The position numbers and the translations under genes are program-made. Positions 5,724 to 6,650 of a stretch of DNA of 64,000 nt are shown piece by piece. The notes beneath the pieces were generated by a model. It was given only the letters and a program-made list of their open reading frames with translations. It made no database searches and was not told the DNA's origin. Each line of letters begins with the position of its first letter. The stretch's first letter is position 1. The stretch comes from Escherichia coli (GTDB lineage: Bacteria; Pseudomonadota; Gammaproteobacteria; Enterobacterales; Enterobacteriaceae): NCBI RefSeq assembly GCF_024298765.1, contig NZ_CP101210.1; one strand, written 5' to 3'.

Positions 5724-5787
5724 TTCAAAGCGGGTGATGCTGCCAACTTACTGATTTAGTGTATGATGGTGTTTTTGAGGTGCTCCA

Positions 5788-6063
5788 GTGGCTTCTGTTT
5801 CTATCAGCTGTCCCTCCTGTTCAGCTACTGACGGGGTGGTGCGTAACGGCAAAAGCACCGCCGGACATCAGCGCTATCTCTGCTCTCACTGCCGTAAAAC
5901 ATGGCAACTGCAGTTCACTTACACCGCTTCTCAACCCGGTACGCACCAGAAAATCATTGATATGGCCATGAATGGCGTTGGATGCCGGGCAACAGCCCGC
6001 ATTATGGGCGTTGGCCTCAACACGATTTTACGTCACTTAAAAAACTCAGGCCGCAGTCGGTAA
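5788..6063 (+). CDS. insA: IS1 InsA transposition protein
   Basis: 91-aa ORF recognised as IS1 InsA ([24 protein letters not shown]...). Confidence 0.85.
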
Positions 6064-6425
6064 CCTCGCGCATACAGCCGGGCAGTGACGTCATCGTCTG
6101 CGCGGAAATGGACGAACAGTGGGGCTATGTCGGGGCTAAATCGCGCCAGTTCGCCCGGATGTTGGGACTTGAACCGAAGAACACGGCGGTGCGGAGTCCG
6201 GAGAGTAACGGCATAGCAGAGAGCTTCGTGAAAACGATAAAGCGTGATTACATCAGTATCATGCCCAAACCAGACGGGTTAACGGCAGCAAAGAACCTTG
6301 CAGAGGCGTTCGAGCATTATAACGAATGGCATCCGCATAGTGCACTGGGTTATCGCTCGCCACGGGAATATCTACGGCAGCGGGCCAGTAATGGGTTAAG
6401 TGATAACAGGTGTCTGGAAATATAG
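5982..6425 (+). pseudogene. Chimeric ORF: IS1 InsB N-terminal ~56 aa fused in frame to IS3-family (IS2) transposase C-terminus
   Basis: First part matches IS1 InsB (…[20 protein letters not shown]); remainder has IS3-family transposase C-terminal motifs ([11 protein letters not shown]…[14 protein letters not shown]). Confidence 0.7.
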
Positions 6426-6436
6426 GGGCAAATCCA
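6150..6436 (+). mobile_element. IS2 3'-terminal fragment including right inverted repeat, nested inside IS1
   Basis: Ends ...GTTAAGTGATAACAGGTGTCTGGAAATATAGGGGCAAATCCA, matching the IS2 right end as recalled; encodes the transposase C-terminus. Confidence 0.7.
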
Positions 6437-6650
6437 CTGCATGACAAAGTCATCGGGCATTATCTGAACATAAAACACTATCAATAAGTTGGAGTCATTA
6501 CCGACGAAGCGATAGCGATAATGACTGAAAGCGGAAAAATAAAAACAAATTGAATAATGTGTTTGGTAATGAATTTATCGGGGGGAATTGGGCATATCTA
6601 CCGCTTACGTCGAGCCGCTCACACCCGGTCAATGACCTGACAATCTCCCG

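Follow-up and report, generated by a model that had tools for sequence, protein, structure and literature searches.

What is to be made of an element that has both ends of IS1 and very nearly its length, and is built around the end of a different insertion sequence? Such an element occupies positions 5733-6502 of the 64-kb stretch of Escherichia coli DNA that was analysed (the window, 64,000 nucleotides), about 500 bp from a set of genes for raffinose utilisation. Is it an insertion sequence at all? How did an IS1 come to carry the 3' end of IS2 inside intact termini, and why is there no target-site duplication around it? Its anatomy, its neighbours, its coding content and its occurrence in other genomes each answer a part of these questions.

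Anatomy of the element

The reference copies for alignment by blastn were those of E. coli K-12 MG1655: IS1A (NC_000913.3, 19796-20563, reverse complement) and IS2A (381260-382590). The alignments divide the element into three parts, all on the + strand. The left arm (5733..6149) is IS1A nt 1-417, at 100% identity over the 417 bp, and begins with the 23-bp IS1 left inverted repeat (5733-5755), the same as the IS1A end. The middle part (6144..6436) is IS2A nt 1039-1331, with 286 of 293 positions identical (97.6%, 7 mismatches); it includes the IS2 right inverted repeat, at about 6396-6436, and stops at the exact right terminus of IS2, ...GGGGCAAATCCA, at position 6436. The right arm (6437..6502) is IS1A nt 703-768, again at 100% identity, and closes with the 23-bp IS1 right inverted repeat (6480-6502), also the same as the IS1A end. 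At the left joint the two parent sequences share 6 bp: a three-way junction display has the microhomology CGCCAG (6144..6149, + strand) as both IS1 nt 412-417 and IS2 nt 1039-1044. The chimera is accordingly 770 bp long (417 + 287 + 66), and native IS1 is 768 bp. This near-native length is a coincidence; we know of no mechanism that would select for it. The matches to IS1A and IS2A are long and near-perfect, and at that length and identity chance resemblance should be of no concern.

An initial annotation, made from the letters of this DNA, had already proposed most of this structure: IS1 ends at 5733 and 6502, 770 bp apart; IS1 sequence stopping after about InsB codon 56, near 6149; then the IS2 transposase C-terminus and the IS2 right inverted repeat up to 6436; a final 66 bp of IS1; and an in-frame InsB'-IS2 OrfB' reading frame. 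The alignments agree on every count. The ends are those of IS1A, the IS1 segment stops after InsB codon 56 (...GAKSRQ) with IS1A nt 417 at 6149, the interior is IS2A nt 1039-1331 and the last 66 bp are IS1A nt 703-768 at 100%; the reading frame is found at 5982-6425 in the list of ORFs and its translations. The annotation had also named an alignment to reference IS1 and IS2 sequences as the way to check the interior, and with the K-12 copies as references that alignment makes 6150-6436 IS2 and not bona fide IS1.

The rest of the window is poor in such sequence: it holds no second IS1, even by blastn-short, and IS2 is represented elsewhere by nothing more than a 41-bp left-end remnant at 14619-14659.

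The raf island

The chimera is part of a genomic island with the order tRNA-Phe, integrase, rafR, rafA, rafB, rafD, rafY, about 500 bp of DNA, the chimera, a gene for a TPR protein and a gene for a phosphoethanolamine transferase. The raf products serve raffinose utilisation: rafA specifies an alpha-galactosidase, rafB an MFS transporter, rafD a GH32 protein and rafY a porin. Rfam and tRNA scans of the window, which also covered positions 17,000-64,000, return the tRNA-Phe (16105-16180) and nothing else. In the window the island sits at pheV, on the yqgA/speC side; in strains EC6563, APEC17 and MS1685 it sits at pheU, on the dicD/dsbD side. Genomes with a second copy of the chimera number about 12-13 among 5,426; in PK8276, the one of them that was checked, the whole island is present at both pheV and pheU.

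Island comparisons set window positions 1-16228 against loci L008, L010, L016 and L017. In the carriers EC6563 (L008, 1-10894) and MS1685 (L011) the island runs into a dnd/dpt phosphorothioation modification-restriction cluster (dndB-E, dptH), which is placed to the left of the region matching the start of the window.

The 41-bp IS2 left inverted repeat remnant mentioned above (TAGACCGTCCCCCTAAATCTCCAGACAACCAATATCACTTA) differs from IS2A nt 1-41 at 3 positions. It is upstream of rafR, 24 bp from the start codon (14594, minus strand), and the rafR promoter region therefore overlaps it. The same remnant is found in raf islands that do not contain the chimera, and is therefore an older, separate IS2 scar. 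This IS2 left end and the IS2 right end at 6436 both face the raf genes. Between rafR and the integrase gene there is also a perfect hairpin, CCCTCTGATCT-GTA-AGATCAGAGGG (14677-14701). In EC6563 and APEC17 its 3-nt loop is inverted (TAC vs GTA) between identical stems, which looks like a template-switch (quasipalindrome) polymorphism.

Genes and signals left in the remnant

What can the remnant still specify? The ORF list and translations give an intact insA of 91 amino acids (5788..6063, + strand; RefSeq WP_000179213.1), whose product is the DNA-binding repressor of IS1, and in which both Pfam domains, Zn_ribbon_InsA and HTH_Tnp_IS1, are complete. Within the IS1 left inverted repeat a consensus scan marks a promoter-like site (CTGCCA-16-TATGAT, 9/12; 5740..5767, + strand) at what, from established knowledge of IS1, is presumably the native position of the insA promoter; promoter and terminator sites found by the scan are no more numerous than in shuffled sequence. 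The A6C motif for -1 frameshifting (AAAAAAC, 6039..6045, + strand), located by script, is intact, and we assume for it the programmed -1 frameshift role that the IS1 literature assigns.

The chimeric reading frame (5982..6425, + strand) is 147 codons long: InsB codons 1-56 run on, without a change of frame, into the final 91 codons of IS2 InsD/OrfB. NCBIfam models match this ORF and the fusion over positions 1-119 of 199 of the IS1 transposase profile and 198-301 of 301 of the IS2 TnpB profile; in Pfam, DDE_Tnp_IS1 is matched at positions 1-23 of 131 only, and rve_3 comes from the IS2 C-terminal part. In the best case, a -1 frameshift would yield a product of 212 amino acids with the complete Zn-ribbon and HTH of InsA, a partial IS1 DDE domain and the IS2 rve_3. 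RefSeq calls the IS2 part a pseudogene. Since both catalytic domains are incomplete, the remnant cannot encode a transposase and cannot move on its own.

Need it be wholly inert? With the insA promoter region, insA and the frameshift site all preserved, it may still make InsA and a catalytically dead InsA-B'-InsD' fusion retaining the domains that bind IS1 ends, and so act as something beyond a scar; the sequence shows the parts to be intact, and we consider the reading unlikely. Were it so, InsA or the dead fusion could lower IS1 transposition in trans in ~4-5% of E. coli, and the intact inverted repeats would make the remnant a substrate for InsAB'-driven rearrangements beside the raf genes. 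Any supply of InsA or fusion protein in trans, however, would be unlikely to matter. The practical advice for annotation is to treat the fusion ORF as a pseudogene and not to count the locus as an active IS1.

Occurrence among genomes

The population sample consisted of 5,426 complete E. coli genomes, searched with junction-specific probes in place of an earlier count of 299 genomes, which had been inflated by the joining of separate IS1 and IS2 pieces. The IS1/IS2 joint (a 76-mer) is present in 235 of these genomes at 247 places, and the IS2-IRR/IS1 joint (a 126-mer) in 250 genomes at 263 places; extending the latter probe by 78 bp of right flank again gives 250 genomes and 263 places. The junction of the TPR gene with the IS1 left end is found in 216 genomes (226 places), and the chimera together with both 500-bp flanks in 210. 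All places found by the junction probes are chromosomal. The chimera is carried by about 4-5% of complete E. coli genomes.

The right flank is the same, a stub of a BRO-N domain gene adjoining rafY, at 263 of 263 copies of the IS2-IRR/IS1 joint, and there is consequently no sign that the chimera ever transposed by itself. No plasmid record contains the chimera with its right flank at 80% coverage, the top matches being chance IS1/IS2 neighbours joined by the search, and neither joint occurs in 100,044 species-representative genomes. Four metagenome contigs contain the IS1/IS2 joint and are collinear with the window. The population data show that inheritance or transfer of the remnant has always been that of the raf island to which it belongs. 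The two junction sequences can therefore serve as a stable, single-origin marker for one raf island lineage, at pheU and at pheV.

The flanks and the absent target duplication

The 9-mers next to the two IS1 ends, TTCAAAGCG on the left (5724-5732) and GACGAAGCG on the right (6503-6511), match at 6 of 9 positions; the initial annotation had concluded from this that there is no clean target duplication, and the sequences confirm it. Where is the other half of the duplication? The right-hand side is readily traced. The 51 bp at 6503..6553 (+ strand) are the last 16 codons and the stop codon of a BRO-N domain gene that the IS1 insertion interrupted. Uninterrupted copies of this gene are found in the IS-free relatives L007 and L009 (CDS 4260-5051 of L007) and in L015; the raf-positive strains PRO_A-1534 and 19451123, which lack the IS, each have an intact BRO-N gene adjoining rafY. 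At the insertion point the IS-free sequence reads ...ACAGACTATC GACGAAGTG ATAGCG... (with ...CTATC before GACGAAGTG). Because the IS-free alleles carry GACGAAGTG at this site, the right 9-mer GACGAAGCG is the original IS1 target, and probably the surviving copy of the IS1 target duplication.

The left-hand side has a different pedigree. The TPR-protein gene (4704..5732, - strand) is truncated at the IS1 left end, where the 8 initial codons and the upstream region are missing; its ORF in the window specifies 339 amino acids as against 347 in an intact homologue. The intact homologue in L005 runs on through this point, ...TTCAAAGCG|TAATCTGTCGTTCAT, in the region of the start codon. The left 9-mer is thus plain TPR coding sequence, which means that other DNA has taken the place of the original left flank of the IS1, and it is because of this replacement that the target duplication is absent. 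An empty site joining the two flanks was not found among the genomes searched, and the flanks are of separate origin. A search for the original left junction (BRO-N...GACGAAGTG|IS1-IRL) found none, and there is no full-length IS1 at the TPR site: the best-ranked place covers positions 36-580 of the query only, in a search whose loose E-value returned thousands of ordinary IS1 copies.

The last 5 bp, AAGCG, are common to both flanking 9-mers, directly at the IS1 ends. The agreement may be fortuitous, with a probability of about 1 in 1,000, or it may be what remains of a short-homology deletion by which the left flank was exchanged.

A proposed history

We hold it very probable that the element is what remains, decayed and immobile, of one insertion sequence nested in another, and that it was made in four steps. 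In step 1, an IS1 of the IS1A type would have inserted into the 3' end of the BRO-N gene just beyond rafY, as the IS-free allele suggests. In step 2, IS2 transposed into that IS1, entering between nt 702 and 703 with its orientation the same as that of IS1: the exact IS2 terminus abuts IS1 nt 703, which is the signature of IS2 transposition into IS1, there being no other way for a precise IS2 end to meet internal IS1 sequence. In step 3, a RecA-independent, microhomology-mediated deletion of ~1334 bp between two CGCCAG repeats took IS1 nt 418-707 together with IS2 nt 1-1038, and the left copy of the 5-bp IS2 target duplication would lie within the deleted DNA. The left joint is internal to both elements and falls in a 6-bp direct repeat, which argues for a microhomology deletion and against a transposase event; if the joint were random, homology of 6 bp or more would, by our own estimate, have a probability of roughly 7/4096. 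In step 4, the left flank was replaced, with loss of the left copy of the 9-bp duplication and joining of the IS1 end to TPR codon 9. The replacement itself is seen in the comparison of flanks, and its mechanism we infer; three routes may be considered, namely a deletion adjacent to the IS1 end, recombination of IS1 with IS1, and a short-homology deletion by way of AAGCG.

The nested ancestor would be recognisable by its IS1(...GGAGCTGCA)|IS2-IRL junction (IS1 nt ...707; ...CTGCA). Neither the 5,426 complete E. coli genomes nor the metagenome contigs contain it. Since no surviving intermediate was found, we infer steps 1 and 4 and the order of the events. The initial annotation had favoured insertion of IS2 into IS1, then an internal deletion and possibly an IS-mediated rearrangement; that account is supported, every feature of it that can be tested being in agreement, except as to which event came first and how the left flank came to be exchanged.

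Variants in related strains

In APEC17 the chimera is the same and the right flank is identical over 5.5 kb, but the left flank is another one (GTTGAAGTC|IS1). Its left arm (L006, 4231-4647) differs from window positions 5733-6149 by 7 substitutions, all within IS1 nt 127-396, while the IS2 part, the right arm and the 5.5 kb of raf DNA are identical to those of the window; this variant form of the left arm is found in seven genomes. The clustering of substitutions points to an exchange with another IS1 copy, as judged from the aligned sequences. Any such exchange must have ended in the 21 bp that close the arm (nt 397-417), which is unusually short for homologous recombination.

In GF43 (L014, 5011-8126), the single strain examined that has such an arrangement, a full-length IS2 abuts IS1 nt 703-768 beside raf. 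To the left of this IS2 lie cybC and a divergent full IS1 (96.4% identical to IS1A), and it is cybC, not IS1, that is directly adjacent. The GF43 IS2 is a mosaic that has the alleles of the chimera only at nt 1281-1305, in its last ~50 bp. Four base pairs, CTGC, stand on both sides of it. We considered GF43 as proof of the nested ancestor and rejected it, on account of the mosaic IS2 and the left flank of cybC instead of IS1; the arrangement may be derived from the chimera instead of being ancestral to it.

Further insertions have entered the TPR gene or the IS1 left arm in other carriers: IS26 and ISSso4 in XDL, ISSso4 in PK8276, IS100 inside the IS1 arm in Z1323CEC0014, and ISEc12 in Br_178. 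The loci with such accumulations include L001 3599-8106, L012 3536-5337 and L013 3505-5807. The TPR gene and IS1 left arm form a local zone of IS pile-up, and the left side is demonstrably unstable.

Other explanations

Might the two arms descend from separate IS1 insertions, the first at the 5' end of the TPR gene and the second, with IS2 inside it, in the BRO-N gene? One large microhomology deletion, running from nt 417 of the former to IS2 nt 1039 and removing all that lay between, would then make the chimera and its mismatched flanks at once. Each 9-mer would be half of a different duplication, and no separate replacement of the left flank would be needed to account for the absent target duplication; the left joint is a microhomology deletion under this model as it is under the four-step history. 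Islands at tRNA-Phe of the type integrase-TPR-phosphoethanolamine transferase, without raf, do exist and make a tandem or mosaic ancestor plausible. Against this, a full IS1 at the TPR site is seen in no genome, an ancestor with TPR and BRO-N genes in one array was not found, and in the two IS-free relatives examined the genes on the left of BRO-N are different ones. With 100% identity to IS1A in both arms, the alleles offer no evidence of separate origins, and the number of events is the same as in the four-step history. We regard this model as possible but rather unlikely. Nested insertion into a single IS1, with a later change of the left flank, is the reading we prefer.

The remaining explanations question what the element is and not how it was assembled, and none of them fares as well. 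That it is a live, non-autonomous derivative of IS1, mobilised in trans by InsAB' from other copies, is suggested by two 23-bp inverted repeats that are 100% intact, a size near that of native IS1 and host genomes that contain other IS1 copies. The single right flank of all 263 joint copies in 5,426 genomes makes this very improbable, as do the two-copy genome that was checked, in which the whole island is duplicated at pheU and pheV, the want of any copy on a plasmid, the absence of a target duplication and the zero matches in 100,044 species-representative genomes. A hybrid transposase, or an insertion sequence of a new kind, is a notion invited by the InsA-InsB'-InsD' fusion, with its frame kept across the joint and its A6C site intact; it is hardly credible for a protein that keeps 23 of 131 positions in the IS1 DDE domain and, from the integrase core of IS2, the C-terminal part alone, specified by an element that has no additional copies and whose IS2 part is a RefSeq pseudogene. 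Finally, IS repeats are a classic cause of misassembly, and from one window alone a false joint made by collapsed copies of IS1 and IS2 cannot be told from a true one; the initial annotation had raised the point. The same junctions in 235-250 complete genomes and in four collinear metagenome contigs exclude it: junctions and flanks are identical in 210-250 genomes that were independently assembled, the metagenome contigs have the same arrangement, and the joints themselves bear the marks of biological events, one in the exact IS2 terminus and the other in the microhomology of 6 bp. The probability left to an assembly artefact is negligible.

Comparison with known elements

The likeness to IS1 (IS1A of K-12) is very close as far as it goes: the inverted repeats, the insA promoter region, insA, the A6C site and insB codons 1-56 are 100% identical. 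The chimera has the terminal inverted repeats of ~23 bp and the combination of insA with an A6C site by which an IS1 is recognised; unlike an autonomous IS1, it lacks the complete InsB/DDE_Tnp_IS1 catalytic region, having InsB residues 1-56 only. The missing DNA, IS1 nt 418-702, is most of insB and hence of the catalytic domain of InsAB'. It also lacks the direct target duplication of 8-9 bp (9 bp would be expected here), and it is found at one site only, beside the raf cluster. With IS2, of the IS3 family, it shares the last 293 bp at 97.6%, including the right inverted repeat, the terminus and the C-terminal reading frame, whereas nt 1-1038 are gone, and with them the left inverted repeat, orfA and some 70% of orfB. 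There is thus a right inverted repeat only and no full orfA-orfB DDE (rve) domain, and with nt 1-1038 missing the remnant cannot form an IS2 minicircle.

Nor is it part of an IS1 composite transposon carrying raf, there being no second IS1 and the far side of raf being occupied by the integrase gene and tRNA-Phe. MITE-like derivatives that are mobilised in trans resemble it in having the terminal inverted repeats of a parent IS and no working transposase; the chimera differs from them in having neither dispersed copies nor a target duplication, in being far longer and in keeping the repressor gene insA.

A literature search for a published description of the chimera or of the raf island gave nothing relevant. 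The significance of the element beyond bookkeeping is little: PGAP had already annotated it piecemeal, and it is a nested-IS scar of a familiar kind, made from a standard IS1A and an IS2. Its proper companions are the generic nested and interrupted IS scars of E. coli and Shigella islands, in which one IS enters another and deletion and exchange of flanks follow in an IS-dense region. Nothing of substance separates it from these, the kept outer inverted repeats and the near-native length being accidental. Among them it can be valued as a clean example of how a nested IS insertion and a microhomology deletion turn a mobile element into a dead one that, by its ends and its length, looks intact.
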